The notes beneath the pieces are model-generated. The model did not search any database. It was given only the letters and a program-made list of their open reading frames with translations, and had not been told where the DNA came from. From positions 1 through 35,868 of the IMG/VR virus record IMGVR_UViG_3300044633_001084: DNA of 35,868 nt; one strand, 5' to 3'. The DNA comes from a virus. Its lineage: Duplodnaviria; Caudoviricetes. Below are positions 180-35,868 of the stretch, one piece after another. The number at the start of each line of letters is the position of its first letter. Positions within the stretch are counted from its first letter, which is position 1. The position numbers were made by a program, and so were the translations under genes.

Positions 180-581
180 GACTATCCCAATGAGGGAGTA
201 AAAGGTGTTGATAGTTCAAGAAATGCACCCAATTCAACATATCAATATAAGAACTATGGCATGCCAGAGAGCGGCCGAGCATCCCTAAAAAGATACATAC
301 AGAGTGGAAAGGCGAAGATTACAAGTGTCATGAATGACAAGGCTTTAGGCAAAGGCGGCGAAAAAATAGGGGTAAGCTTTAGCAAAAAAGGATCTTTAAT
401 TGATAGGCAAGTTGAGACTTTAGCTTATTTAATTAAAAGATTTGGTATAAAGACTACTAACTATTTCACGGATGCTTTTAACAAGACCTTTGAGAATTTT
501 GAGGTGACTATTGCAGAGGCGGTTGGATCGGACATTGTGATCACATTTGAGAGAATTAATTTGAATAAAAGTAATAAATAA
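1..581 (+). CDS. 3' part of a putative tail completion/virion morphogenesis protein (full ORF 35614 across the junction to 581, 218 aa)
   Basis: The frame continues across the circular junction from ATG 35614. C-terminal 'LAYLIKRFGIKTTNYFTDAF' resembles HK97 gp10-like tail completion proteins. Lies between the tail chaperone and tail-tip genes. Confidence 0.55.
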   Translation, partial: FGVVNGVLEQYGEELLKNISYFGNNKGVVGSGELLSNMIPEIIEQNGVTTFTLRMLDYFDYPNEGVKGVDSSRNAPNSTYQYKNYGMPESGRASLKRYIQSGKAKITSVMNDKALGKGGEKIGVSFSKKGSLIDRQVETLAYLIKRFGIKTTNYFTDAFNKTFENFEVTIAEAVGSDIVITFERINLNKSNK

Positions 582-1711
582 TGGCAATAACAAACCTAGG
601 TTATCCAAGTGGCAGTCCATCGGTGCAAGACACTCTTTGGCATATATTTGACTCAAACATAACAAGCACAGACTTGAAATATGTTGTTGATCTTTACGTT
701 GGCGGAGCGCAGCAAGTAAGAGTTAAGCTTTACCCAGAGCCAACAACCGGCATCGGATATTTTGACGCTGGGCCTATTATAAGAAACACAATGACTTACC
801 AGTGGCTAACACCTAACACAAACGTATTAATGTGCGAGCCAAATGTGAGCGGACAAATAGCACAGACATATCAATATAGGATCGGTGAGGAATATAGCGG
901 TGTGACTTATTTAAACTTAGCAAGTGGCAACGTAACTGCTTACAATTTTGTGGCTCCTACATTTGAGCGCAAGGTGGCAGATTTGAGCGCTTATAATGGC
1001 AAAGCATTAAGCAATAGGCCAAACGAAATAAATGCATCACTAGGTGACAATATCTATATAGGTGCTAAGGATGTAAGCGGATTGGTTGTGTCAACTTATA
1101 ATTTTAGCAATGTAAAAATTGCAGACACTACTTATTCCCTTGGAGGCACTAAGGCTTTTGCGCAGCTTAACGTAGGATCGCCGGCATTAAACAACCCTAC
1201 TGCCGTGATCACATCATCTGTTAAATACTACACGATCACACTAGGCACTAGCACATATAGAGTTAATTTGGAGTGCAATCCTAAATACACTAGCTACAAC
1301 CTACATTTTATGAATCACCTAGGCATGTTTGACACTGCCAAGTTTGATCTAGCATCTAGGCTAACAATGGATGTTCAAAGAAAGTCTTATGAAAAAAGAG
1401 ATTATACTTTTGGCGCGTCATCTGTTACTTATTATGATGCCAATAAAAAGTATGTTGATAGCAAGGTGAACTATCTAAATAAAAAGGATCATGCATATAA
1501 GCTTACAATGAATGCACCAACAGATAGCCAATATGAATGGCTTGCAGAGTTAATTGACTCACCTCAAGTGTATTTTGAATTGGATGGTTATTTTTATCCA
1601 GTAAGTATTAAGAATACAAATTTTGAATATAGCAAATATGTCAATAATAGATTAAGAGTTTTTGAGGTAGAGATTGACATTAATCAAACACGCTTTAGCC
1701 AATTAAGATAA
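581..1711 (+). CDS. Putative tail structural protein (distal tail/baseplate component)
   Basis: 376 aa, beta-rich. C-terminal 'FMNHLGMFDT...EWLAELIDSPQVY' is typical of Bacteroidota siphophage tail genes. Coupled to neighbours (TAATG overlap at 579-583). Confidence 0.65.
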   Translation: MAITNLGYPSGSPSVQDTLWHIFDSNITSTDLKYVVDLYVGGAQQVRVKLYPEPTTGIGYFDAGPIIRNTMTYQWLTPNTNVLMCEPNVSGQIAQTYQYRIGEEYSGVTYLNLASGNVTAYNFVAPTFERKVADLSAYNGKALSNRPNEINASLGDNIYIGAKDVSGLVVSTYNFSNVKIADTTYSLGGTKAFAQLNVGSPALNNPTAVITSSVKYYTITLGTSTYRVNLECNPKYTSYNLHFMNHLGMFDTAKFDLASRLTMDVQRKSYEKRDYTFGASSVTYYDANKKYVDSKVNYLNKKDHAYKLTMNAPTDSQYEWLAELIDSPQVYFELDGYFYPVSIKNTNFEYSKYVNNRLRVFEVEIDINQTRFSQLR

Positions 1712-1712
1712 C

Positions 1713-4700
1713 ATGACTAGAATATTTATTGAAGGATATGAACTTGATTTGACTCAAGGCTTAAGCAACCAGATTACTTATGCCATTGATGATCTACAAA
1801 ACATAGATAGCAAAAGCACCAGCTTTACAAAGACAATAGTATTGCCCGGCACTGCTAACAATAATAAATTGCTAGGCAATATCTTTGATTTTAACAATGC
1901 TAACTTTGACAATCCTCTTGATCCAAATGTGCTGGCAAACTTTAACGCAGCGCGTAATGCATCGGCACGAATAGAGATTGACGGATTGCAGATCATGAAA
2001 GGTGTTTTGCGCTTACTTGAGATAGTACATGTTGACGGAGCGATTGAATATGAGTGCGCATTATTTGGGGAATTGGGCGGATTTATAAATGCACTTGGCA
2101 ATAAAAGACTTGAGGACTTAGACTTTAGCGCTTATGATCACACATATTCTTATGCTAATATTGTGGCAAGCTGGAATACTACCGGCAGCACTAGCTATTG
2201 CTATCCTTTGATTGACTATGGCAATGTAAGTACTGACAAAGTAAATTTTCAATATAAGACATTCAAGCCAGCATTGTTTGTGCGTGAATATCTAGATAAG
2301 ATTTTCACTGGCAGTGGCTACACTTATGAATGCGATTTATTTAATACTAGCGATTTTAGAAAGCTAATTGTGCCTAACAATTCAAAGCAATTAACTAAAC
2401 AGACAAGTGATGTGCTTAAATTGACTAAAGCAATAAATCAAAGCATGAATGAAGGTGGCTCACAAGACTTTGTAAGTTATGAGACTAAAGTAGGCTCTTT
2501 ATTTACTGCAAGCGCTAGCGATACAACCTTCACTTATAATGGTACGCCTACGCTTACTACTAATATAACAATTGAAATTTTTGGTGATTATACTTTAGCT
2601 ACAAGGCCATTAACAATAGCAGTCTTAAAAAATGGAGTTGCAATATCTGGATCAAGTCAAACTTATAATGGTACTGATTTGCTTTATTATAATAAATCAT
2701 TATCTGTAACCCTAGCAACAAATGACACATTAAGAGTTAGAACAAGTTGCATACTTGACATTGGTGATGAGGTTAATGTAAGCGAAAGTACAATAAATGT
2801 TATAAACAATGTTGCAACAACTGCGCCTATTGAATTAGGTGACACAATGGTGATCAATAATACAATCCCAAAAGGTATATTTCAAAAAGACTTTGTGACA
2901 TCCATCATGAAGATGTATAATTTATTGATTGTTGAAGATAAATATAAGACAAAGCATTTAGTGATTAAGCCTTATGTTGATTTTTATACTGGTACGATTG
3001 TTGATTGGAGTGACAAGCTAGATCATAGCAAAGCAATTAAGATCAAGCCAATGAGTGAGATCAATGCTAGATATTACAATTTTAAATATAAACAAGACAA
3101 TGATTTTTACAATGAAGATTATCGCAAGAAATTTAATGAGGGATATGGTGATAGGGTGTACGATAATGGTCTTGAATTTGCTAAAAATACTGAGAGTGTT
3201 GAAATAATATTTGCGTCATCACCTTTGTTTGGCACAAGTACAACTGACAAAATTTTCCCAGCTATTTATAAAAAGTCGGACAATAATACCAAAGAAGATC
3301 CTATGGATCATATTATGCGTATTATGCAAATAAACAAAATTACTGGTGTAACAAGTTGGAGCATATTAAATGGAGCGACTAACTTAGGATCAAACACTGC
3401 TTATTTATTTTGTGGACATTTAAACAATCCAACAACGCCAAATATTGACATAAACTTTGGCGCACCACAACAATTGTTTTTTAACTTGACAAGTGGTGAC
3501 TTAAGCTACAACTTATTTAATGTTTACTACTCGCCGTACATGTACGAAATTACTGACAAAGATAGCCGTTTACTAACCGGCTTTTTTGATTTAACGGAAC
3601 TAGACATTTTTAATATAGATTTTGCAAAGTATTATTTTATTGATGGCGGACTTTATAGACTTATAAAAGTGTACGATTATAGTCCAGAAAACAATGATAC
3701 TACAAAGGTTGATTTGCTAAGAGTGATTGATGCAGTTGGTACTGATTTTGTGCCATCTACAACAACTACTACTACAACTACAAGTACAACTACTACAACT
3801 ACAACTTTAGCTACTTTTGACGCATCTTATAGCATGGTGAGTGCTTATGATGTTTGTAACAATGTATGTCCAAATCCATCGCGTCCAGTTGAAACATTTA
3901 CCATTTTATCTGGTGGTGGCACGCTTTGCACTGCGACTAAATTAACAAGTACTTTAATTGCGAATGGCACAATCACTGGCAATTTCTGGTTAAGCGCTTG
4001 TACTGGCACTAGCAGAGGATTTACTATTATTATTGAAGGAGGTCAATTTGTAGCAGTATGGACAGAAGAGACATGTCAAACATGCCCAGATGTTACTACT
4101 ACTACAACTACTACAACTACTACAACAACTAGTACTACTACAACTACTACAACGGCTCCGCCAACAACAACTACTACTACAAGTACTACTACTACTACAA
4201 CTACATTGCCTACTTTTAATGCATCTTATAGCATGGTAAGTGCTTACGATGTTTGCAATAATGTATGCCCTAACCCAGCAAGACCAATAGAGACATTTAC
4301 AATTCTAGCTGGCGGAAGTACTTTATGTACTGCGACTAAATTAACAAGTACTTTAATTGCAAATGGTACAATTACTGGTAATTTTTGGATAAGTGAATGT
4401 AGCGGAACAAGCAGAGGATTTACTATTATACTTGAAGGTGGTCAATATGTTGCAGTATGGACAGAAGAGACATGTCAAACATGTCCGGCTGCCACAACAA
4501 CTACTACAAGTACAACAACTACTACTACAACGGCTCCGCCTACAACAACAACTACTAGTACAACAACAACTACTACAACGGCTCCGCCTACAACAACTAG
4601 TACTACTACAACTACTACAACGGCTCCGCCTACAACAACAACTACAAGTACAACTACAACTACTACTACTTATGCTGCAATTACATTAAGTGTTAGTCCA

Positions 4701-5429
4701 GGTTGCACTGGTGGGGAAGGAACCGGAACTGTTACTGCTAACGGATTTAACGGAGGTAGTGAAAGTTTTGAGTATATTGCTATCAGTTCAACGTCAAGTA
4801 GTGATGCGCTTAGTAGATTAGACAATTCAGCAACTAGAACATTCTTAGGAGGTGCTACTGAATTTACATATACTATGCTTGCAAATGCAACATATTATGT
4901 GGCAATTATGGACAATGTAGGAAATAAAGGTGTAAGCTCAGGAGCGGTTGTAAATTGTGTTACTACAACAACTACAACTACCACTACAAGTACAACAACT
5001 ACTACTACAACGGCTCCGCCTACAACTACAACTACAAGTACAACTACAACTACTACAACGGCTCCGCCTACAACAACAACTACGAGTACAACAACTACTA
5101 CAACTACGCTAGGTTATGCTTTTGTTGATATTACTAATAGCACGGCCGGTACATCAATAACTAATATAACAATAAATGGAGTTCAAGTTGATGGTGCAAC
5201 ATTCCCAATAGTTGCTGGTGATGGAGCATCGGCTACAACTACGCAGACTGGTGCATCTAGAACAATTGTTGTATCTTACACAAATGTAAGCAATGACTCT
5301 GTTGAGGTGATTGATACTGCATCAAACCTTACTTGTATAAGTGCAACATCAACAAGCAGAACATTTAGCGGCCAAGTTGTAAATGATGGAGGTACAATAA
5401 GCGTCACAATGTTTGACGGATCATGCTAA
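1713..5429 (+). CDS. Tail tip/baseplate hub protein with a mucin-like, Thr-rich multidomain C-terminal extension
   Basis: The N-terminal ~680 aa ('ITYAIDDLQNIDSKSTSFTKTIVLPGT', 'YPLIDYG', 'FKPALFVREYLDKIF') resemble tail-tip proteins. The C-terminus has four Thr tracts, two 94-aa Cys-rich repeats and two beta-rich domains. Confidence 0.75.
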   Translation: MTRIFIEGYELDLTQGLSNQITYAIDDLQNIDSKSTSFTKTIVLPGTANNNKLLGNIFDFNNANFDNPLDPNVLANFNAARNASARIEIDGLQIMKGVLRLLEIVHVDGAIEYECALFGELGGFINALGNKRLEDLDFSAYDHTYSYANIVASWNTTGSTSYCYPLIDYGNVSTDKVNFQYKTFKPALFVREYLDKIFTGSGYTYECDLFNTSDFRKLIVPNNSKQLTKQTSDVLKLTKAINQSMNEGGSQDFVSYETKVGSLFTASASDTTFTYNGTPTLTTNITIEIFGDYTLATRPLTIAVLKNGVAISGSSQTYNGTDLLYYNKSLSVTLATNDTLRVRTSCILDIGDEVNVSESTINVINNVATTAPIELGDTMVINNTIPKGIFQKDFVTSIMKMYNLLIVEDKYKTKHLVIKPYVDFYTGTIVDWSDKLDHSKAIKIKPMSEINARYYNFKYKQDNDFYNEDYRKKFNEGYGDRVYDNGLEFAKNTESVEIIFASSPLFGTSTTDKIFPAIYKKSDNNTKEDPMDHIMRIMQINKITGVTSWSILNGATNLGSNTAYLFCGHLNNPTTPNIDINFGAPQQLFFNLTSGDLSYNLFNVYYSPYMYEITDKDSRLLTGFFDLTELDIFNIDFAKYYFIDGGLYRLIKVYDYSPENNDTTKVDLLRVIDAVGTDFVPSTTTTTTTTSTTTTTTTLATFDASYSMVSAYDVCNNVCPNPSRPVETFTILSGGGTLCTATKLTSTLIANGTITGNFWLSACTGTSRGFTIIIEGGQFVAVWTEETCQTCPDVTTTTTTTTTTTTSTTTTTTTAPPTTTTTTSTTTTTTTLPTFNASYSMVSAYDVCNNVCPNPARPIETFTILAGGSTLCTATKLTSTLIANGTITGNFWISECSGTSRGFTIILEGGQYVAVWTEETCQTCPAATTTTTSTTTTTTTAPPTTTTTSTTTTTTTAPPTTTSTTTTTTTAPPTTTTTSTTTTTTTYAAITLSVSPGCTGGEGTGTVTANGFNGGSESFEYIAISSTSSSDALSRLDNSATRTFLGGATEFTYTMLANATYYVAIMDNVGNKGVSSGAVVNCVTTTTTTTTTSTTTTTTTAPPTTTTTSTTTTTTTAPPTTTTTSTTTTTTTLGYAFVDITNSTAGTSITNITINGVQVDGATFPIVAGDGASATTTQTGASRTIVVSYTNVSNDSVEVIDTASNLTCISATSTSRTFSGQVVNDGGTISVTMFDGSC
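3756..5108 (+). repeat. Four Thr/Ser-rich coding tracts (3756-3806, 4095-4205, 4494-4670, 4962-5108) with six TAPP units
   Basis: Runs of ACA/ACT codons. ACGGCTCCGCC occurs at 4152, 4530, 4578, 4620, 5010 and 5058. Confidence 0.97.
3807..4487 (+). repeat. Tandem duplicated 94-aa Cys-rich domain (3807-4088 and 4206-4487)
   Basis: 83 of 94 residues identical by manual alignment; six Cys conserved in each copy. Confidence 0.95.
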
Positions 5430-5442
5430 TAAAAAAAACAAT

Positions 5443-6408
5443 ATGATTTATATTTGCACGCAACCTAAGATAGTTTATTACGCATGGCATTTAGAAGTTA
5501 TGCTCACCAACTTTAAGTCGGTGGGCATACCAGATGATAAGATACATGTCTTGTTATCTGTTAGTAAAGATCAAAATGATAAGACTAACTGGCCAGAGAC
5601 AACTGCTATGTATGAAAGGTTAAAAGAGAAATTTAACACAATAGCTTTTTTTGAGTACAAAGACACTCGTGTGATGCCTACTTACATTCCTAGTGTGATC
5701 ATGAATGCAGTCAAGCAGCACTATCAAGCTTATCCTTATTTGCAGATGGAAAATGTATTTCTACATGACTGCGATATGATATTCACAAAACCGGTAGATT
5801 TTAGCGATCTTGAGCAAGATGATAGTTGCTATGTTAGTGACTCAAAAGGCTTTATTTGGAGCGATTATATTCTAGAGAAAGGTCAAGACCTTTATGAGGA
5901 TATGTGCGACATTGTTGGCTTAGATTATAGCGTGCCAATAAAGCACAGATTGAATAGCGGCGGATCTCAATATATTTTTAAAAATACTGACTATAAATTC
6001 TGGCAAAAAGTTGAGAGCGATAGTGTGGCTTTATATGATTATTTCCAAAAGAGTGAGCCATTAAGAGTGCAAAAAAATCCAAGCTATTATGGCATTCAGC
6101 AGTTTACTGCCGGCATGTGGGGTATGCTTTGGAATTGCTGGTATCATGATCTTGATGTAAAAATAACGCCAAGACTAGATTTTTGCTGGGGTACTGATCC
6201 GATTGAAAAATGGAGCAAGTGCGATATTTTCCACAATTCCGGCGTGACTTATGACATTGGAAAAAATCATAATATATTCTACAAAGGCGCATATACAGAC
6301 AAATTGCCTTATGAAGATGTGATGAATACTGAGTACAATGAGACCTTTGGATCATTTAATTATACTAACCTAATAAGACAAGTAGGCTTAAACACTTGTT
6401 TAAAATAA
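5443..6408 (+). CDS. GT-A fold glycosyltransferase, possibly a peptide O-glycosyltransferase (HPAT/SERGT1-like)
   Basis: DxD motif 'VFLHDCDMIFTKP', N-terminal 'YYAWHLEVM', 'FTAGMWG' and a late 'IFHNSG' His. ATG 5443 after an A-rich leader is preferred over TTG 5413. Confidence 0.7.
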   Translation: MIYICTQPKIVYYAWHLEVMLTNFKSVGIPDDKIHVLLSVSKDQNDKTNWPETTAMYERLKEKFNTIAFFEYKDTRVMPTYIPSVIMNAVKQHYQAYPYLQMENVFLHDCDMIFTKPVDFSDLEQDDSCYVSDSKGFIWSDYILEKGQDLYEDMCDIVGLDYSVPIKHRLNSGGSQYIFKNTDYKFWQKVESDSVALYDYFQKSEPLRVQKNPSYYGIQQFTAGMWGMLWNCWYHDLDVKITPRLDFCWGTDPIEKWSKCDIFHNSGVTYDIGKNHNIFYKGAYTDKLPYEDVMNTEYNETFGSFNYTNLIRQVGLNTCLK

Positions 6409-6414
6409 TAAAGC

Positions 6415-8001
6415 ATGGCAACTAAAAAAACAACAATTGCCGCCGAGATTAAAGTTGACACCGGCGGTGCAGAGAAAGAGGTCAAAGATTTAAAAGATGA
6501 CATACAAGGTGTCGGCACTGCCACAGAAGGCAGTATTGCTCAGCTTAAAGAATTAAAAAAGCAGTTAAAAAATACGGCTGCCGGCTCCGAGGAATTTGAA
6601 AAATTATTCAATCAAATTGACGATCTAGAGGATAAAATTAAGGGATCTAAGAAAGCATCAAGCGACTGGATTGATACTTTAGAAAGTGCTGGCGGCCCAC
6701 TAGGAATGGTAGGAGCTGCACTTAATAGAGCAAAAGTTGCTACAACATCATTTAGTGCTGCACTTAAAGCAACTGGTATCGGATTGCTAGTTAGTTTAGT
6801 AGCTGGACTAGCGGCCGCATTTGCAAAGAATGAAGGTGCAATGAAAAAGCTTGAGCCTATAATTACTCAATTTGGTAGGATCTTAAATGGCATTTTAGGA
6901 GCAATGGAGCCTTTAATAGATACTTTCATTGATCTTGCTACTAAGGCATTGCCTTATGTCACAGATGGTTTTAAAGTGGCTTATTCTGCCATGAGTTCAT
7001 TCTTGCAAGGATTAGGCCTTGTTGGATCAGCAGTTAAAAAGTTTATAAGTGGTGACTTTAGTGGTGCGTGGGATGATGCTAAAAAGTCTGTTACAGAATT
7101 TGGCACCAGATATGAAGATGCAAATAAAAGATTTATTGCTGGATCAAAAGAGTTGACTGATACAGAAAAGGCAGAACAAGCTAAAAGATTAGCTGATCAA
7201 AAAGCATTTAATGAAAAGCAAGCGGCAGAAAGAAAAGCAGCGCAAGAAAAAATAGACGCAGAAGAGAAAGCAAGACTTGAGAAAGCAGCAGCAGATGCTA
7301 AAGCATATGAAGATTTTGACACTGAATTGCAACAAAGACTTATTGAAATTGAAGATGAAAAAGCAGCCAAAGAAACTGAAAGATTAGAGAAAGCAGCAGC
7401 AGAAGCTAAAGCTTATAATGATTTTGATACAAAATTACAACAAGATTTATTAAAAGTAGAAGAGGATGCAACTGCTAAAAAAATAGCACTTGCAGATGCA
7501 GAGTTGCAAGCAAAACTAGGTCTTGCAAATGCTATCGGTAATATTGCTGGAGGTTTATCTGCATTATTTGAAAAAGGTACTACTGCCGCAAAGATTGCTG
7601 GTCTTGCAGAAATAGCAATAGGCACTGGTGTTGGATTTATACAAGGCTTAGATATTGCACAAAAAGGTGCAAAAGCAACTGGCCCAGCAGCACCTTTTGC
7701 ATTTCCTATTTTTTATGCCACTCAAATTGCAGCAGTACTTGCAGCAGCTAGCAGAGCAAAGAGTGTAATGACTCAAGTAAAAGGCGGAAGCGGAATTTCA
7801 ATCCCTAGCTTTGGCGCACCATCTATTCCTAGTGTAAGCGCAAATGCACCACTTGCGCCATCATTACAAACTACTACTTTAAATCAAGCACAAGTTAATC
7901 AAATAGGTAATGTGGCAGCAAGAGCATACGTTGTAGAAAGTGACATAAGCGGAAATCAAGAAAGGATCACAAGATTAAACAGAGCCGCAAGGATCAGCTA
8001 A
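6415..8001 (+). CDS. Putative tape measure protein
   Basis: 528 aa, Ala/Gly/Lys-rich, predicted helical with coiled coils and hydrophobic segments ('ALKATGIGLLVSLVAGLAAAF'). Has an internal 36-aa repeat and C-terminal 'RAYVVESDI'. Confidence 0.7.
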   Translation: MATKKTTIAAEIKVDTGGAEKEVKDLKDDIQGVGTATEGSIAQLKELKKQLKNTAAGSEEFEKLFNQIDDLEDKIKGSKKASSDWIDTLESAGGPLGMVGAALNRAKVATTSFSAALKATGIGLLVSLVAGLAAAFAKNEGAMKKLEPIITQFGRILNGILGAMEPLIDTFIDLATKALPYVTDGFKVAYSAMSSFLQGLGLVGSAVKKFISGDFSGAWDDAKKSVTEFGTRYEDANKRFIAGSKELTDTEKAEQAKRLADQKAFNEKQAAERKAAQEKIDAEEKARLEKAAADAKAYEDFDTELQQRLIEIEDEKAAKETERLEKAAAEAKAYNDFDTKLQQDLLKVEEDATAKKIALADAELQAKLGLANAIGNIAGGLSALFEKGTTAAKIAGLAEIAIGTGVGFIQGLDIAQKGAKATGPAAPFAFPIFYATQIAAVLAAASRAKSVMTQVKGGSGISIPSFGAPSIPSVSANAPLAPSLQTTTLNQAQVNQIGNVAARAYVVESDISGNQERITRLNRAARIS

Positions 8002-15092: not shown

Positions 15093-18000
15093 ATGGAAAT
15101 AATAAACGTAACGGACGAGATCATAGAAATAAATGTCACAGAGGCAGTTGTTAATGTTGTAACACAGAATGGCGCATATCCATTGCCAAGCAATGTATTT
15201 AGCGTATTTGGCAGAGTGGGCAACGTAGTAGGACAAGCTGGTGACTACACAACTAGCATAGTAGCAGAAGGTACAAATCTTTATTATACAGATGCTAGAT
15301 CAAGATCAGCGATCAGTGAGAATATCACTGGAATTGAATACTCAAGTGCAAGTGGTATCTTTAGTCTTACAAATGGCTACCTTATCCCAACGCAAGCAAT
15401 GCTTGATGCAAAAGTACCTTATACTGGTGCAACTGGGAATGTAACTTTAGGCGAGCATCAATTAAGTGCTGGACAAGTTGCGTTTGATCAAACACCTACC
15501 GGCACTGCTGGTGTAGGCATAATGAGATGGAATGATGCAGATGGCACATTGGATCTAGGATTGAAAGGCGGCAATGTTACTTTACAAGTAGGGCAAGAAA
15601 TGGTTGCAAGAGTTGTAAACAAAACTGGCGCTGATTTATTAGAGGCAAACTATCAAGTGGTGCGTATTAGTTCGGCGCAAGGTCAAAGACTAGCGGTGCA
15701 ACTAGCGCAAGCAAATAATGATGCAAATAGCACAGACACTATTGGTATTGTTACTGAGACCATACAAAATAATCAAGAAGGTTTTATTACAATATTAGGA
15801 CAAGTTAAGCAAATCAATACTACCGGATCACTACAAGGTGAGACTTGGGCGGATGGTGATGTGCTTTATTTAAGTCCGACTATTGCTGGTAGAATTACAA
15901 ACATAAAGCCAACGGCTCCGCAACACATGGTTGTTGTTGGTTATGTAGAATATGCGCACCAAAATAATGGTAAGATTTATGCTAAGATAGCAAATGGATA
16001 TGAGCTTGAAGAGTTGCACGATGTTGCGCCTACGCCATATATTAATAACGGCGTGCTTTATAGAGACACTGCTACTAACTTATGGAAATCTGCAACGATT
16101 GGTACTTTGCTTGGATATACACCAGTGACAAGTGCTAGAACAATAAGCACAACTGCACCTTTAACTGGTGGCGGTGATCTTAGTGCAGATAGGACATTTG
16201 CAATCACACAATCTAGCGCAAGCGCAGATGGTTATTTAAGCAGCACAGACTGGAATACATTTAACAATAAAGAAAACTTTTTAGCAAGCGGCACAACGGC
16301 GCAATATTACAGAGGTGACAAGACATTCCAGACTCTAAATACTTTAGCAGTACCAGAGAATACAAATCTTTATTATACTCAAGCAAGATTTGACACTGCT
16401 TTTGGAAATAAAAGCACAACAAATTTAGCAGAAGGCACAAATTTATATTACACAGATGCGCGTGCAAGAGCATCAATTACTGGCACGGCTCCAATAGATG
16501 TAAGCGGTGGCGTGGTAAGTATAAGCCAAGCTGGTGGTGCAAGCAATGGTTATTTAAGCAGCACAGATTGGAATATATTTAACAACAAGCAAGCTGCTTT
16601 AAATGGCACTGGCTTTGTAAAAATATCTGGTACTACAATTTCTTATGATAACAATACATACTTAACAACAATAAGCGGCATTGCTGCTGGTGGCGAGTTA
16701 AGTGGTACTTATCCAAATCCTAGCTTAGTAAATAGCGCGGTAATTGGCAAGGTTTTAACCGGACTTAATTTAACCGGTGGTGGTACTATTGCTGATACTG
16801 ATAGCATTTTAGGTGCTTTTGGTAAAGTTCAAAATCAAATTAGTGCTTTAGTTGGTGGCGTTATGTACGAGGGTACTTGGAATGCATCAACAAACACACC
16901 TACTATTGTTAGTAGCGTAGGATCTAAAGGTGACTATTATATAGTTTCAACTGCTGGATCTACAAACATAAACGGCATCACAAGTTGGAATATAGGTGAC
17001 TGGATCATTTTTAATGGCAGCACTTGGGATAAGGTAGATAACACAGACGCAGTAAGTTCGGTTAACGGATACACTGGTGCAGTTAGTTTAGTAACTAGCG
17101 ATGTGCCAGAGAGCGGCAGTTTATACTTTACAAATGCTAGAGCGATAGGATCAACTTTAACTGGTTATACAAGTGGCTCTGGTGTGGTAGCTGCAACAGA
17201 TACAATATTACAAGCTATTCAAAAGCTTAACGGCAACGTGAGCGGATTGGTTACTGGTGTGAGTTCGGTGTTTGGACGCACTGGCGCGGTGATCGCTGCT
17301 AGTGGTGATTATACTACAACACAAGTGACAGAGGGTACAAACCTTTATTATACAGAGGGCAGAGTAAGCGCAAATACAGATGTCGCTGCCAACACTGCTG
17401 CTAGACACGCGGCGGTTACAATAGGCACGGCAAATGGTCTTAGCTTAAGCACGCAAGCTTTAAGCTTAGCGGCTGCAAGCACAAGCACAACTGGTGCTTT
17501 GACTAGCACAGACTGGAATACATTTAATGGCAAGCAAGCTGCGCTTAATGGCACCGGCTTTGTGAAGATCAGTGGCACTACTATAAGCTATGACAATAGC
17601 ACTTACTTAACTACAAGCGCTGCGTCAAGCACTTACCTACCTTTAACTGGTGGTACGCTTACTGGTGCTTTAAGTGCAAATACTGGAATTAATATAGGAT
17701 CAAGTGGAACAAATGATATTAGCTGGAATACTGCTGGTGGTATAAAATTAAGTAGAACAAATGTAGGCCCAGAATATGCTTTATCTCAAGCATGGACTGG
17801 AACATTAGCTTATGTTGATATTGCTTCATCTTCACAATGGAATGGTGGTGTAAGAATATTACCTAATGGAGGTGGTAACGTTGGAATTGGAACGAGTACG
17901 CCAAGTCAAAAATTAGAAGTTGCTGGTGCTGATGTTAAGATATTAGTTAATTCAACTGATTATGCTGCATTACAATTAAAAGCTGGTACTACAAGAACTT

Positions 18001-19316
18001 TTAATTTACAATCAATAAATGATGGTACAGGTGCATTTAGGATTTATGATGCAACTGCTGATGTTGAAAGATTAAGAATCACAAGCGGTGGTAACGTACT
18101 TATTAATCGTACAACTGATCAAGCAACTGGCACATCACAAGTAAAACTTGCAGTAAATGGCCCAGTAAATGTTGGTAGTGCTATAAATAACACCTCTTTC
18201 CCAACAAGAGATGACGGAGGGTTAGGTGTTTATGTTGGTAGTGGCTCTAATGCGTTTCAAGTTTGGGATGATAATAACTTTACAAACCCAAGATTTATTG
18301 TACAAAGAGGCGGTAGCGTTGGAATCGGAACGAGTTCGCCATCAAGTAAACTACATATTGAAGGAACTGGTACGGGTGCTTGGCTTACTATTAATAGAAC
18401 TGATAGCGGTACAAATATTGTAGATTTTACTCAAAGTGGAACAAGATTAGGTTATGTAGGATACATCGGTAACGACTTGAATTTAAACAATGCAACCGCT
18501 TCTAATACAATATTTAGTACTTCCAATAGCGAACGTATGCGTATCACTAGCGGTGGTAACGTTGGAATCGGAACGAGTTCTTTTCCATCATATTCAGGTG
18601 CACAACAAATGACAATGAAGGGGAGTGCTACAAATACTAATAGTGTTTTTCAAGTTCAAAGTTATGATGAAGGAACTTCAATTTCAATATATTCAGGTGC
18701 TGCATCAAGTGATGACCCAGCTATAATATATCAAAAGAATTTAAGATTTGGTTCAGCAACAAATACGGCATTAGGTGGATATGCCGAACGAATGAGAATC
18801 ACTTCGGGGGGTAATGTATTAATAGGAGATACTGGTGATTATTTATCAAGTAGATTAAATTTAAAATCAGCAGATTCAACAAGTTCAACAAATATTATAT
18901 CTTGTAGAAATTCATCTGGAACTGATTATTTTAGAGTAAGAAGTGATGGTTATACTTATGCACTTGGTGTTTACAATAATACAACTGGTAGTGGTGCAAA
19001 TGTTTTTGTAGGTGCTGGTGGTGATTTTCTTCGTTCTACATCTTCATTAAAATATAAAAATAGTATTAGAGATTATGATAAAGGTTTAGATATTGTCAAT
19101 CAATTAAGACCAGTTTACTATAAAGGTAATAATGATGGCGATACAATATTTGCTGGTTTAATAGCAGAGGAAGTACATGAATTAGGCTTAACTGAATTTG
19201 TGCAATATGCAGAAGATGGTACTCCAGATGCGTTAGCTTATCAAAATATGATAGCATTAGCATTTAAAGCAATTCAAGAACTTAAAGCAGAAATAGACGA
19301 ATTAAAAAACAAATAG
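15093..19316 (+). CDS. Long tail fibre/receptor-binding protein with a C-terminal intramolecular chaperone (Peptidase S74-like)
   Basis: Repeats 'EGTNLYYT', 'STDWNxFNxK', 'SVFGRxG' and 'ERMRITSGGNVGIGT'. C-terminal 'TSSLKYKNSIRD...GLIAEEV...KAIQELKAEIDELK'. Confidence 0.88.
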   Translation: MEIINVTDEIIEINVTEAVVNVVTQNGAYPLPSNVFSVFGRVGNVVGQAGDYTTSIVAEGTNLYYTDARSRSAISENITGIEYSSASGIFSLTNGYLIPTQAMLDAKVPYTGATGNVTLGEHQLSAGQVAFDQTPTGTAGVGIMRWNDADGTLDLGLKGGNVTLQVGQEMVARVVNKTGADLLEANYQVVRISSAQGQRLAVQLAQANNDANSTDTIGIVTETIQNNQEGFITILGQVKQINTTGSLQGETWADGDVLYLSPTIAGRITNIKPTAPQHMVVVGYVEYAHQNNGKIYAKIANGYELEELHDVAPTPYINNGVLYRDTATNLWKSATIGTLLGYTPVTSARTISTTAPLTGGGDLSADRTFAITQSSASADGYLSSTDWNTFNNKENFLASGTTAQYYRGDKTFQTLNTLAVPENTNLYYTQARFDTAFGNKSTTNLAEGTNLYYTDARARASITGTAPIDVSGGVVSISQAGGASNGYLSSTDWNIFNNKQAALNGTGFVKISGTTISYDNNTYLTTISGIAAGGELSGTYPNPSLVNSAVIGKVLTGLNLTGGGTIADTDSILGAFGKVQNQISALVGGVMYEGTWNASTNTPTIVSSVGSKGDYYIVSTAGSTNINGITSWNIGDWIIFNGSTWDKVDNTDAVSSVNGYTGAVSLVTSDVPESGSLYFTNARAIGSTLTGYTSGSGVVAATDTILQAIQKLNGNVSGLVTGVSSVFGRTGAVIAASGDYTTTQVTEGTNLYYTEGRVSANTDVAANTAARHAAVTIGTANGLSLSTQALSLAAASTSTTGALTSTDWNTFNGKQAALNGTGFVKISGTTISYDNSTYLTTSAASSTYLPLTGGTLTGALSANTGINIGSSGTNDISWNTAGGIKLSRTNVGPEYALSQAWTGTLAYVDIASSSQWNGGVRILPNGGGNVGIGTSTPSQKLEVAGADVKILVNSTDYAALQLKAGTTRTFNLQSINDGTGAFRIYDATADVERLRITSGGNVLINRTTDQATGTSQVKLAVNGPVNVGSAINNTSFPTRDDGGLGVYVGSGSNAFQVWDDNNFTNPRFIVQRGGSVGIGTSSPSSKLHIEGTGTGAWLTINRTDSGTNIVDFTQSGTRLGYVGYIGNDLNLNNATASNTIFSTSNSERMRITSGGNVGIGTSSFPSYSGAQQMTMKGSATNTNSVFQVQSYDEGTSISIYSGAASSDDPAIIYQKNLRFGSATNTALGGYAERMRITSGGNVLIGDTGDYLSSRLNLKSADSTSSTNIISCRNSSGTDYFRVRSDGYTYALGVYNNTTGSGANVFVGAGGDFLRSTSSLKYKNSIRDYDKGLDIVNQLRPVYYKGNNDGDTIFAGLIAEEVHELGLTEFVQYAEDGTPDALAYQNMIALAFKAIQELKAEIDELKNK

Positions 19317-30870: not shown

Positions 30871-30980
30871 GCAATGACTCACGCAAGGTCACATTTGGCA
30901 AACGCAAAATAGGATCAGCAAAAAAAAGCTACAACAAGCATTCACCCAAACCTAAGAAATATCGTGGACAAGGACGCTAA
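30858..30980 (+). CDS. Small highly basic peptide ending YRGQGR (40 aa; not in the ORF track)
   Basis: MAKVSNDSRKVTFGKRKIGSAKKSYNKHSPKPKKYRGQGR. Fills the gap between neighbouring genes. Confidence 0.7.
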   Translation: MAKVSNDSRKVTFGKRKIGSAKKSYNKHSPKPKKYRGQGR

Positions 30981-31989
30981 GATCATACAAGTACTTGGCA
31001 TCACACAAAAGCTAAGCGGTTGCGGATGGCATAGAGTAATGCTGCCTTTGGCATTTATGCCAGACTCTTACAACCATGTGTGCAATGTACCTACAAAAGA
31101 AATACTTGAAGAGAGGCGATTTGATATTTTGTTGTATAACAGATTCAGTCAATTTGATAATGACTGGGATGAGACAAAGCAGCACTTTAAAGTAGTGATG
31201 GATCTGGATGATGACTGGGAATTGCCATACAACCATCCTTTGTATTATGGGTATGAGGCACACAAAAAGCGGATCATTAACAACATCTTTAATGCTGATC
31301 TTGTGACATGCACAAATCAAAGGATCGCTGACAAGGTGAGCAAGTACAACAAGAAAGTATTAATACTGCCTAACTGCATACCTTATGGTGAGCATCAATA
31401 CAATGGTGACAAATACGAAAGCGACAAGACTCGTATCTTTTGGGCCGGCGGATCTACACACCTTGAGGATATTAAGTTGCTAGCAAATCCTTTTAAAAGA
31501 CTGACTGCATTAAAAGATATTGAGATGGTGCTTGGCGGATATACTGACACAGATCCAGTGAGCAAATCATACTGGGATAAGATACATTCAATGTTTACGA
31601 ATGGCGGAAAGTTAGCTAATAGAAAACTTATAAGCGAACTGCCAAGCAATTACATGGAGCATTTTAAACATGCAGACATTATGGTTGTGCCTTTGCAAGA
31701 GTCACCATGGCATGCGAGCAAAAGCAATTTAAAGCTACTTGAGGCGGCAGCTAAAAGAGTGGCAGTGATTGTGAGTGATGTTGAGCCATACAACCTAGAC
31801 AAAGATGCACCAGTGCTATGGGTAAAAAATCAAGCAGACTGGTTTAAGCATTTATCATACTTAGTAAATAACCCAGACGAAAGGATCAAGATGGGCAATG
31901 ATCTTTTTGAGTGGGCAAAAAACAAATACAATCATGAGCGAATTAATGAAGCTAGACGATCAGCATTTGCAGACCTTGTTAAGGCATAA
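30964..31989 (+). CDS. GT-B fold glycosyltransferase (GT4-like)
   Basis: 'SGCGWHR', 'MDLDDDW', 'WAGGSTHLED' and 'KSNLKLLEAAA...SDVEPY'. Confidence 0.85.
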   Translation: MDKDAKIIQVLGITQKLSGCGWHRVMLPLAFMPDSYNHVCNVPTKEILEERRFDILLYNRFSQFDNDWDETKQHFKVVMDLDDDWELPYNHPLYYGYEAHKKRIINNIFNADLVTCTNQRIADKVSKYNKKVLILPNCIPYGEHQYNGDKYESDKTRIFWAGGSTHLEDIKLLANPFKRLTALKDIEMVLGGYTDTDPVSKSYWDKIHSMFTNGGKLANRKLISELPSNYMEHFKHADIMVVPLQESPWHASKSNLKLLEAAAKRVAVIVSDVEPYNLDKDAPVLWVKNQADWFKHLSYLVNNPDERIKMGNDLFEWAKNKYNHERINEARRSAFADLVKA

Positions 31990-32176
31990 GCATTTTTATG
32001 ATCTGTTCAAGACAACCGGTGAACTGGTTGGATTTACACATGAGATCCAAAACGAACTGGCAGAAGTCATGCGCACAAAAGATCCGTACTACACATACAA
32101 CGGCAGATGTGGTGCATGCGTGGGATCATTTTTAGTTAACGTATATAAAACATTCAATGAGTACATTCATTCATAA
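31934..32176 (+). CDS. Hypothetical protein with CxxC
   Basis: 80 aa from ATG 31934; 'RCGACVG'. Confidence 0.6.
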   Translation: MSELMKLDDQHLQTLLRHKHFYDLFKTTGELVGFTHEIQNELAEVMRTKDPYYTYNGRCGACVGSFLVNVYKTFNEYIHS

Positions 32177-32642
32177 GACGGCCATTGTAGGGCCAAATGT
32201 CACACTAGGTGACAATGTTTACATCGGGCCATATTGTGTGATCGGTGAGCCAGCAGAGCATAAGCTATTCTGGAATGCGCCAGTAGGCGAAGTTGTGATC
32301 GGTGATGACTGCGTGATCACTGGTCATGTGACTATTGATGCCGGCACAATTGACAAGACAATAATCGGTGCTGGTGTTTGGATGCTTAAGCATTCACATG
32401 TAGGTCATGACTGCGTGATTGGTAACAATGTAACAATCAGTTGCGGTGCAAAGATCGGTGGTCATACTATTGTCGGTGATGGCTGCAACATTGGACTTAA
32501 TGCAGTGATCCATCAAAAGCAAGTGATTGCTAAAGGATGCATGATCGGTATGGGTGCCGTGGTAACAAGAAAGCTACACACAACACACGCAACAAAATAT
32601 GCTGGCAACCCAGCAAAGGAAATAGGCAAAAACATATTTTAA
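32157..32642 (+). CDS. Hexapeptide-repeat (LbH) acyl/acetyltransferase, LpxA-like
   Basis: Hexapeptide repeats, 'TIDAGT', LpxA-type 'HVGHDC' and 'AGNPAK'. Lacks the LpxA helical C-domain. Confidence 0.85.
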   Translation: MSTFIHKTAIVGPNVTLGDNVYIGPYCVIGEPAEHKLFWNAPVGEVVIGDDCVITGHVTIDAGTIDKTIIGAGVWMLKHSHVGHDCVIGNNVTISCGAKIGGHTIVGDGCNIGLNAVIHQKQVIAKGCMIGMGAVVTRKLHTTHATKYAGNPAKEIGKNIF

Positions 32643-33284
32643 ATGAAAGTATTAATAGCTGGCTTGACTTATGGCAAAAGACCTCTTGACATAATGTATC
32701 AAAATATATTTAAATGTGGATTTGATGCTCATTGGCTTGAGGTAGTAAAAGAAGTCGGAGGCTTTGATGTAAGTGTAGTTGAAATAAATACCGAAGGCAT
32801 AGCCAACGCAATGAATGAAGCTATTGACATTGCTGGTGTGGATGGCTATGATGCAATTGCGTATTTAGCAAATGACATTATTGAGCCGGACAATTGGCTT
32901 GCTAAAAAGGTTGAGGCACTAGAGACTTACCCAGATGCCGGCATTGTGGCAAGCAGCTTGGACAGAGAAAGGCGTGGCATAAATAGTCAGCATATTATAA
33001 GCAACTGGCTACTTAGTATGAAGGTAGTTGATAAGATCGGCATCTTTAATGAGTCCATGTTTCCTTATGGGCCTATTGATCTGGACTATTGTGAGAGGGC
33101 CAACCTAGCTGGATTTAATACCTACTATGTGATGGACTGCCTTGCCGAGCATATAGGCGGCCATGCATCTGGTGATGAATATGGCTATAACAAAACCGAA
33201 CTATTACAAAAGAATTGGGCGCAACATGAAGCCGATATAAGAGGCTATCGTGATGGCACTAAAAATATAAAACTATGGAAATAA
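32643..33284 (+). CDS. GT2-like glycosyltransferase
   Basis: 'GIANAMNEA', 'YLANDII...WL' and 'IGIFNESMFPYGPIDLDYCERA...GF'. Confidence 0.75.
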   Translation: MKVLIAGLTYGKRPLDIMYQNIFKCGFDAHWLEVVKEVGGFDVSVVEINTEGIANAMNEAIDIAGVDGYDAIAYLANDIIEPDNWLAKKVEALETYPDAGIVASSLDRERRGINSQHIISNWLLSMKVVDKIGIFNESMFPYGPIDLDYCERANLAGFNTYYVMDCLAEHIGGHASGDEYGYNKTELLQKNWAQHEADIRGYRDGTKNIKLWK

Positions 33285-35654: not shown

Positions 35655-35868
35655 TCAAGGTGGCGATCTAGGTGGCACGGACATCATGGAGTTTGGTGTG
35701 GTCAATGGCGTGCTTGAGCAATATGGTGAAGAGTTACTAAAAAATATTAGTTACTTTGGTAATAATAAAGGCGTAGTCGGTAGCGGTGAATTGCTTAGTA
35801 ATATGATCCCAGAGATCATTGAGCAAAATGGTGTAACTACCTTTACGCTAAGAATGCTAGACTATTTT
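35614..35868 (+). CDS. 5' part of the putative tail completion protein (continues at 1..581)
   Basis: MSININKAQADFLSQGGDLGGTDIMEFGVVNGVLEQ... is in frame with ORF 9..581. Confidence 0.75.
   Translation, partial: MSININKAQADFLSQGGDLGGTDIMEFGVVNGVLEQYGEELLKNISYFGNNKGVVGSGELLSNMIPEIIEQNGVTTFTLRMLDYF
35690..35868. repeat. Terminal direct repeat, right copy
   Basis: Matches 1..179 with one mismatch. Confidence 0.97.

Follow-up and report, generated by a model that had tools for sequence, protein, structure and literature searches.

A poly-threonine, likely tail-tip protein and a neighbouring predicted GT-A-fold enzyme point to a probable phage-encoded threonine O-glycosylation system

The stretch of 35,868 nucleotides (nt) in IMG/VR virus record IMGVR_UViG_3300044633_001084, which we analysed at its full length and refer to as the window, encodes a likely tail-tip protein with four tracts composed largely of threonine (Thr) and, directly downstream, a predicted glycosyltransferase. 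The locus raises the question of whether the second of these gene products modifies the first, as an initial annotation had supposed when it described the pair as a substrate-enzyme cassette building a mucin-like appendage. From the gene context, which is strong, we think it probable that the two genes represent a phage-encoded cytoplasmic Thr O-glycosylation system that in this phage would give rise to a mucin-like adhesive appendage.

The tail protein consists of a 676-amino-acid (aa) core and a 557-aa extension made of four tracts and four folded beads with even Cys counts (6, 6, 2 and 2), the tract lengths and their placement between domains being just as the initial annotation gave them (Table 1). 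Together the tracts hold 133 Thr, 11 Ser and six APP hinges. Runs of at least seven Thr or Ser residues are found in no other frame or strand of the window, and Thr tracts are absent from its capsid, tail-tube-like and portal proteins. The tract codons are a mixture of ACT and ACA, which are also the usual Thr codons of this genome, and because they are mixed the tracts are not a pure microsatellite. An assembly artefact was considered and rejected, as the layout recurs with other tract lengths in 22 other distinct proteins. The 23 distinct Thr-bearing proteins contain 11 bead types in shuffled orders (such as AACB, ADB, AECB, AHCB and AFG), the window protein being AACB, and this shuffling of beads between Thr-coding repeats spans window positions 3807–5426 and loci L001–L051. 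A comparison of contigs from four runs was confounded by unrelated ACT/ACA microsatellites and its joints were not used. The disulfide-type Cys pairing in the beads is odd for a protein that folds in the cytoplasm.

Table 1. Features of the window discussed in the text, with positions counted from its first nucleotide
Feature	Position	Strand	Remarks
Likely tail-tip or hub protein, 1238 aa	1713–5429	+	conserved core plus poly-Thr/bead extension; putative acceptor
Conserved core, aa 1–676	1713–3740	+	3927 homologues; in most relatives the core stands by itself, at about 680 aa
C1q/TNF-like jelly-roll domain, aa 228–370	2394–2822	+	structure match
Thr tract 1, 17 aa, aa 682–698	3756–3806	+	
Bead A1, 96 aa	3807–4094	+	6 Cys; no Pfam match
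Thr tract 2, 37 aa, aa 795–831	4095–4205	+	one APP hinge
Bead A2, 96 aa	4206–4493	+	6 Cys; duplicate of A1 (82% DNA, 86% protein identity)
Thr tract 3, 59 aa, aa 928–986	4494–4670	+	three APP hinges
Bead C, 97 aa	4671–4961	+	2 Cys
Thr tract 4, 49 aa, aa 1084–1132	4962–5108	+	two APP hinges
Terminal bead B, 106 aa	5109–5426	+	2 Cys
Predicted GT-A-fold glycosyltransferase, 321 aa	5443–6408	+	PHROG 4417; DxD at nt 5767–5775, HNxG at nt 6232–6243
376-aa gene	581–1711	+	context; in relatives it always precedes the tail gene
Tape-measure-like gene	6415–8001	+	directly after the tail gene in enzyme-free relatives
Second sugar-modifying cluster: GT4-like (phrog_7162), hexapeptide acetyltransferase, GT2-like	30964–33284	+	just before the terminase genes

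The enzyme gene begins with an ATG 13 nt beyond the end of the tail gene stop codon, the spacing first reported for it. Its product matches PHROG 4417 over its full length (E-value 6.5e-55; residues 1–314 on profile positions 1–291 of 293), a family of 1039 representatives at 50% identity that is listed as function unknown and annotated elsewhere as 'prophage pi2 protein 34'. Neither Pfam, NCBIfam nor the PDB returned a match to the single sequence, and the profile likewise found none in the PDB. The structural model has a predicted local distance difference test score (pLDDT) of 96, and its top fold match is glycogenin (Z 15.0, root mean square deviation (rmsd) 3.4, 225 aligned residues), followed by LgtC (Z 14.5), Skp1 galactosyltransferase (14.1), UGGT (13.7) and GlyE (13.4), with the PBCV-1 capsid glycosyltransferase (PDB 2p6w) at Z 11.3. 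Foldseek agrees, giving E-values of about 1e-6 for UGGT and glycogenin. We are therefore confident in predicting a GT-A fold closest to the GT8-type enzymes, a likeness at fold level only, as Pfam GT8 gives no match at E-values up to 1 among 32 members of the family.

The DxD motif (D109-C-D111) is invariant in 33/33 and 32/32 aligned homologues in two alignments, upholding the earlier reading of this gene as a DxD GT-A enzyme, and H264, N265, G267 and K281 are invariant with it. The enzyme is under purifying selection: the ratio of nonsynonymous to synonymous substitution rates is 0.008–0.048 in nine of ten pairs by a rough count, the remaining pair being saturated. It has no hydrophobic or membrane segment. 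Scanning of 81 long family members identified 18 that are fusions with further glycosyltransferase domains (GT2, GT6, GT7C, GT25, GT29 or PF04488). The initial annotation also called the gene peptide O-glycosyltransferase-like, and besides the fold there is a weak link to such a family: an atlas cluster at 0.97 carries PF23452 (HPAT) on 10% of its members, and member P0216, which is 30% identical to the enzyme (E-value 4e-46), matches HPAT over residues 9–242 with an E-value of 1.3e-4. The score of 21.9 bits lies under the Pfam cut-off of 23.9 and the enzyme itself is unmatched, so that we would regard it, weakly, as a distant HPAT relative and not a member. A PF23452 search of the window genome and five other records found none, although the controls gave no signal either.

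One line of evidence coupling the enzyme to poly-Thr comes from searches anchored on the enzyme. Its viral set comprised the best 80 of 572 confirmed stretches, five of them already known (all with tracts) and 75 new. A poly-Thr open reading frame (ORF) is present at 66 of the 75, lying no more than 100 nt upstream at 54; the remaining nine consist of four loci cut just upstream and five real misses in jumbo-like fragments. Among the four of these records that were searched, one contains poly-Thr at another place. The background is low, with a poly-Thr ORF at 3 of 140 enzyme-free loci of at least 12 kb. Genome contigs give a similar picture, poly-Thr being found at 50 of 65 enzyme loci (51 were scored and one spurious frame was removed), with the other 15 made up of eight short contigs, four chromosomal loci and three phage-like loci without poly-Thr.

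Cultured phages extend the pairing to different acceptors. Nine lineages were inspected out of 77 phage records that match the enzyme, with Chryseobacterium, Enterococcus, lactic bacteria, Clostridium and Staphylococcus as hosts. Thr tracts are present in all nine, and in eight a tract lies directly upstream of the enzyme. Most of the tracts belong to capsid or tail genes. They are carried by two unannotated genes in MA9V-3, the tail tube and capsid in phiFL1A, the tail tube in bIL285, the capsid, a small upstream gene and the tail tube in iLp84, and the tail tube, portal and a head gene in phiCTP1; VPE25, VB-SauS-SA2, LpeD and 4995_1 are the remaining carriers. In most of the Firmicutes phages the tracts are short, with tags of 5–12 Thr at the termini of the capsid and tail-tube proteins, and portal and neck proteins are tagged as well. 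The cassette first proposed is thus supported, but it is special neither to the window tail protein nor to Bacteroidota phages. Tiny near-pure poly-Thr ORFs, both unannotated, adjoin the enzyme in VPE25 (Enterococcus; L396:8462–8617) and LpeD (Lactobacillus; L398:20998–21165), and in Staphylococcus phage SA2 (L397:19667–19930) a tiny poly-Thr ORF overlaps the end of the tail-tube gene as a possible frameshift extension.

Comparisons within single gene families show the two traits being gained and lost together. For the iLp84-type capsid, 36 loci have both the Thr tail and the enzyme, 34 have neither and none is discordant (70 of 74 loci scorable), and three joint changes occur among 54 capsid genes that are 94–100% identical. 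For the bIL285-type tail tube the counts are 14 with both, 60 with neither and none discordant (74 of 80 scorable). Anchoring instead on the window tail gene, the first 32 loci include 15 with tracts and enzyme, 13 with neither, four that are truncated and none with one alone, and 80 further loci include three with both (on contigs already counted), 74 with neither and three truncated. A tree of 101 distinct tail cores, from which 15 loci were dropped as truncated or lacking the core and to which the enzyme-anchored search contributed 11 rows, has 23 tips with both, 77 with neither and one, L108, with the enzyme only, where a tract sits in an ORF of its own that immediately precedes the enzyme. 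Each trait changes six times on this tree. The initial annotation had suggested a survey of co-occurrence and adjacency in related phages, and in several independent phage groups the outcome is in its favour.

The extension itself behaves as a replaceable unit. Among 120 listed of the 3927 core homologues, 41 consist of the core alone, 69 carry Thr tracts and ten bear other extensions, namely cadherin/Ig (two), DUF285 (one) or Cys-rich repeats (seven). These varied extensions suggest that the C-terminus serves as a slot for interchangeable modules, which tend to be adhesin-type domains. At L016 and L018, with core identities of 78–83%, Cys-rich tandem repeats of 490–650 aa stand in the place of poly-Thr (L016:9995–13498 and L018:9995–13993), tracts and enzyme are absent, and the tape-measure-like gene follows directly.

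Several observations weigh against a dedicated enzyme-substrate pair. The reciprocal search, using a ten-Thr DNA pattern in a sample drawn from 2 of the 64 parts of the collection, finds the enzyme at only 8 of 80 loci; at many of the enzyme-free ten-Thr loci the pattern falls in a short or off-frame ORF, an exported-type protein or a giant-virus gene. Taking both directions together, phages with the enzyme almost always have poly-Thr, whereas poly-Thr does not imply the enzyme. Homologues of the enzyme lack a poly-Thr neighbour at the five jumbo-like loci of the viral set, at the four chromosomal loci (three in Myxococcota, one in Dysgonomonas) and at the three phage-like loci among the genome contigs; the initial annotation had counted such independence from Thr-rich proteins against its own proposal, and it does apply in part, to certain bacterial chromosomes and a small number of phage loci. 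In two enzyme-free prophages, L286 and L289, the tail-tube protein still bears a T7 tag. The 'neither' loci were scored within the retrieved flanks only. Independent pairs on the tail-core tree change four times the same way, never in opposite ways and once not at all (p 0.125), and those on the capsid tree are concordant in three of three (p 0.25), neither result being significant alone. The counts come from related genomes and represent few independent events. Because neighbouring genes can be transferred together, linkage could explain the adjacent pairs. The HPAT match is found in 1/72, 0/32 and 0/81 members in three scans, and there below cut-off.

The same set of points includes the label of the tail protein, which is a weak one. 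We consider the product of 1713–5429 likely to be a tail-tip protein on the grounds of its position, its C1q-like domain and weak fold matches, which leaves the initial assignment standing in part: Pfam, PHROG and NCBIfam give no match for the core, and three beads are also unnamed by Pfam and NCBIfam. The structural model is of moderate quality (pLDDT 68). Residues 228–370 match BclA with Z 13.4 and a cyanophage fibre CBD with Z 12.8–13.3, in line with an atlas lead that places PF00386 on 15% of the members of one cluster. The C1q domain fills the structural match list for the model, and in full-length Foldseek comparisons the lambda and T1 tail-tip complexes are matched weakly (E-values 2.9e-4 to 1e-3, rmsd 25–30 Å).

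Taken at face value, the reciprocal counts would suit a different explanation, in which poly-Thr is an unmodified flexible linker or recombination joint and the enzyme acts on a host surface glycan or another protein, the two being co-inherited as a block. The 11 types of bead are indeed shuffled at the tracts, the enzyme is missing from 72 of the 80 poly-Thr loci, its chromosomal homologues stand without a poly-Thr neighbour, and the closest solved folds include lipopolysaccharide and glycogen enzymes. However, many tags lie at the extreme C-terminus with nothing beyond them to link. Tags also occur on genes 1–3 kb from the enzyme, on up to three genes per prophage, and appear together with it, and the pairing recurs with unrelated acceptors in Bacteroidota-type and Firmicutes phages over a background of only a few percent (the 3/140 above). 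We therefore regard unmodified linkers as improbable, and favour glycosylation of the tracts, although the Thr-coding repeats would serve as shuffling joints whether glycosylated or not.

As to the loci that depart from the pairing, L286 and L289:12756–13412 are Lacticaseibacillus-type prophages with no enzyme or capsid tag in the retrieved 21 kb, and are likely recombinants that provide natural controls. Other glycosyltransferase families lie within 10 kb of poly-Thr at 5 of 11 scanned enzyme-free loci; the families near the poly-Thr phage proteins of L142, L191, L128, L189 and L127 are GT2, PF11397, GT4 and GT9, and these loci are possible convergent systems. In the Dysgonomonas contig (L409:2280–4398) the enzyme homologue adjoins a LanC-like gene and efflux genes, a context hinting at glycosylation of a peptide (ribosomally synthesized and post-translationally modified peptide, RiPP). 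Chromosomal homologues are also present in Niabella and in Chitinophaga, the latter homologue being a fusion with a GT7C domain. In a jumbo-like contig (L416:451–12685) the enzyme is fused to GT2 and the protein upstream has Ser-Gly-Thr repeats, not poly-Thr, possibly an alternative acceptor.

The mechanism that we consider most likely is that the enzyme, made with the structural operon, moves a sugar from a nucleotide-sugar onto the Thr runs of the neighbouring protein in the host cytoplasm, Thr being the presumed acceptor residue. By family analogy the GT8-like fold suggests a metal-dependent, retaining transfer with a uridine diphosphate (UDP)-sugar donor. Proteins with the C1q/TNF-like fold usually trimerise, and if this holds for the tail protein each virion would have as many as roughly 400 Thr. 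Once sugar-coated, poly-Thr would stay soluble, extended and resistant to proteases, and the glycosylated extension would be a stiff, three-stranded stalk carrying small adhesive beads with paired Cys residues. An extended linker rises by 0.25–0.31 nm per residue, and the 162 linker residues would then span about 40–50 nm. The beads probably serve to bind capsule or particles, given that enzyme-free relatives have cadherin/Ig, DUF285 or Cys-rich repeats in the same C-terminal slot. The short tags that accompany the same enzyme in Firmicutes suggest that poly-Thr is in general a portable glyco-tag, of which the window phage would have the long, mucin-like form.

Purpose is the least certain step of this scheme. 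The tracts might be glycosylated by the same chemistry but act as a general hydrated coat that shields the virion or keeps it soluble (a protection from proteases, aggregation, grazers or non-host surfaces) and not as a reaching stalk, which differs from the mechanism above in purpose only. In Firmicutes phages the 5–12-Thr tags are bead-free and sit on the most abundant subunits, those of the capsid and tail tube, and mycobacteriophage virion glycans are reported to shield from antibodies (PMC12363180). The window phage, on the other hand, tags one low-copy tail protein only and leaves its capsid, tail-tube-like and portal proteins untagged; the slot is otherwise filled by cadherin/Ig or DUF285 domains, and escape from antibodies is unlikely given that the runs holding this phage are lake and freshwater metagenomes. 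A generic coat is thus a live alternative, though we judge it rather unlikely beside an adhesive stalk.

A third possibility, which we consider the least probable of those discussed, is that the enzyme adds a non-sugar or sugar-phosphate group to the tracts, or only extends a first sugar laid down by another enzyme. GT-A-like phosphotransferases do appear among the lower fold matches (GNPT, Z 10.3; CpsY, Z 9.8), and the genome has GT4-like, GT2-like and acetyltransferase genes at 30964–33284, but the top fold matches, at Z 13–15, are true glycosyltransferases. That cluster does not track the cassette: it is complete in nine enzyme-free loci, including the closest, L016 and L018, and absent from one enzyme-positive locus, and as its presence is independent of poly-Thr it was rejected as a cassette part. 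Moreover, in the head-tail modules of phiFL1A, bIL285, iLp84 and phiCTP1 the annotation shows no further Pfam-type glycosyltransferase next to the enzyme.

Direct transfer of a sugar to Thr would have parallels in known systems. Serine-rich-repeat adhesins have dedicated glycosyltransferases (GtfA/B, GlyE), of which the initiating enzyme is GT-B. Like them, the window locus has neighbouring genes for a hydroxy-amino-acid repeat stalk and a cytoplasmic transferase of its own, and GlyE is among the fold matches (Z 13.4); unlike them, it belongs to a phage virion, has Thr repeats and a GT-A enzyme, and lacks an export system or cell-wall anchor. The Thr-rich tracts and the absence of a hydrophobic segment (maximum 19-residue hydropathy 1.08) place it outside the serine-rich-repeat definition. 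Plant HPAT (PF23452, CAZy GT95) and its kin SERGT (GT96) initiate transfer to a hydroxy-amino acid in repetitive peptides. The weak extended homology through P0216 and the atlas cluster lead is common ground with HPAT, whereas the window enzyme is soluble, with no membrane anchor, and would use Thr and not hydroxyproline or Ser. The GT8-type enzymes (glycogenin, LgtC, Skp1 galactosyltransferase) and the PBCV-1 enzyme share the fold, the DxD and a C-terminal His motif (Z 11–15), notwithstanding identities of 8–13% and no sequence-level match in PDB or Pfam.

A further known parallel is the virion glycosylation of mycobacteriophages Che8, Corndog and Myrna (Freeman et al. 2023, as cited in PMC12363180, PMC12582341, PMC12691614, PMC12894461 and PMC10568470). 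In both cases phage-encoded glycosyltransferases are linked to the phage's own structural proteins (capsid and tail tube in the mycobacteriophages), here by gene context and joint gain and loss. The mycobacteriophage systems are three-gene clusters, whereas the window has a single enzyme with poly-Thr. Che8 gp108–110 and Corndog gp36–38 score at most 1.6 bits with enzyme profile A2, no Thr runs are present at the ends of the Che8 and Corndog capsid and tail proteins, and no mycobacteriophage is among the 77 phage records matching the enzyme. Excerpts of PMC12894461 report ten phages without glycostaining, and the accessible part of PMC6821194 does not treat phage poly-Thr. Our literature search found no description of the enzyme family, its glycosyltransferase role or poly-Thr virion tags, although mention in supplements is possible. 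The window system would work like the mycobacteriophage and serine-rich-repeat systems while being a member of neither.

In the literature we found, seen partly as excerpts, tailed-phage virion glycosylation is documented only for mycobacteriophages. The proposal, if true, would add to these the freshwater Bacteroidota-type phages, along with dairy, Enterococcus, Staphylococcus and Clostridium phages, by way of a different enzyme and an obvious sequence tag, and would give a function to an unannotated family. The question can be tested directly in cultured phages with harmless hosts, and a one-enzyme, tag-directed cytoplasmic Thr O-glycosylation would be a tool for making mucin-like proteins in bacteria. 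More tentatively, and with somewhat less than even confidence, we suggest that a single-subunit cytoplasmic enzyme, prokaryotic but related to the plant GT95/96 peptide glycosyltransferases, allows phages of two or more bacterial phyla to glycosylate any poly-Thr-tagged protein, and that the extended tag of the lake phage is a true viral mucin, a 40–50 nm glycosylated stalk with disulfide-type beads reshuffled by recombination between Thr-coding repeats.

CheckV rates the window as a near-complete phage genome (97%), and terminase, portal, protease, capsid-like, primase and endolysin genes were identified in it. Its ends share 127 identical bases (1–127 and 35690–35816), so that the first and last ORFs are a single gene in a genome that is circular or terminally redundant. 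The stretch is present in 20 of 24 listed runs, these 20 coming from 15 studies; 18 of the 20 are labelled lake or freshwater metagenome, one of the 18 possibly being the source run, and no RNA run is among the listed holders, which has no bearing on expression. We infer a Bacteroidota host from the similarity of the capsid-like protein to Nonlabens phage P12024 (29% identity, E-value 9e-9), the tail core to Elizabethkingia phage TCUEAP1 (22%, E-value 2e-6) and the enzyme to Chryseobacterium phage MA9V-3 (39%).

The gene after the enzyme, initially labelled a tape measure, has no family match; in TCUEAP1 the distant homologue of the tail gene is followed by one small gene and then an annotated tape measure. 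Elsewhere in the window (15093–19316, + strand) a 1407-aa tail fibre is encoded that lacks poly-Thr and carries an S74 chaperone domain at its C-terminus. This is probably the main receptor-binding fibre, which would leave an accessory role for the Thr/bead extension.

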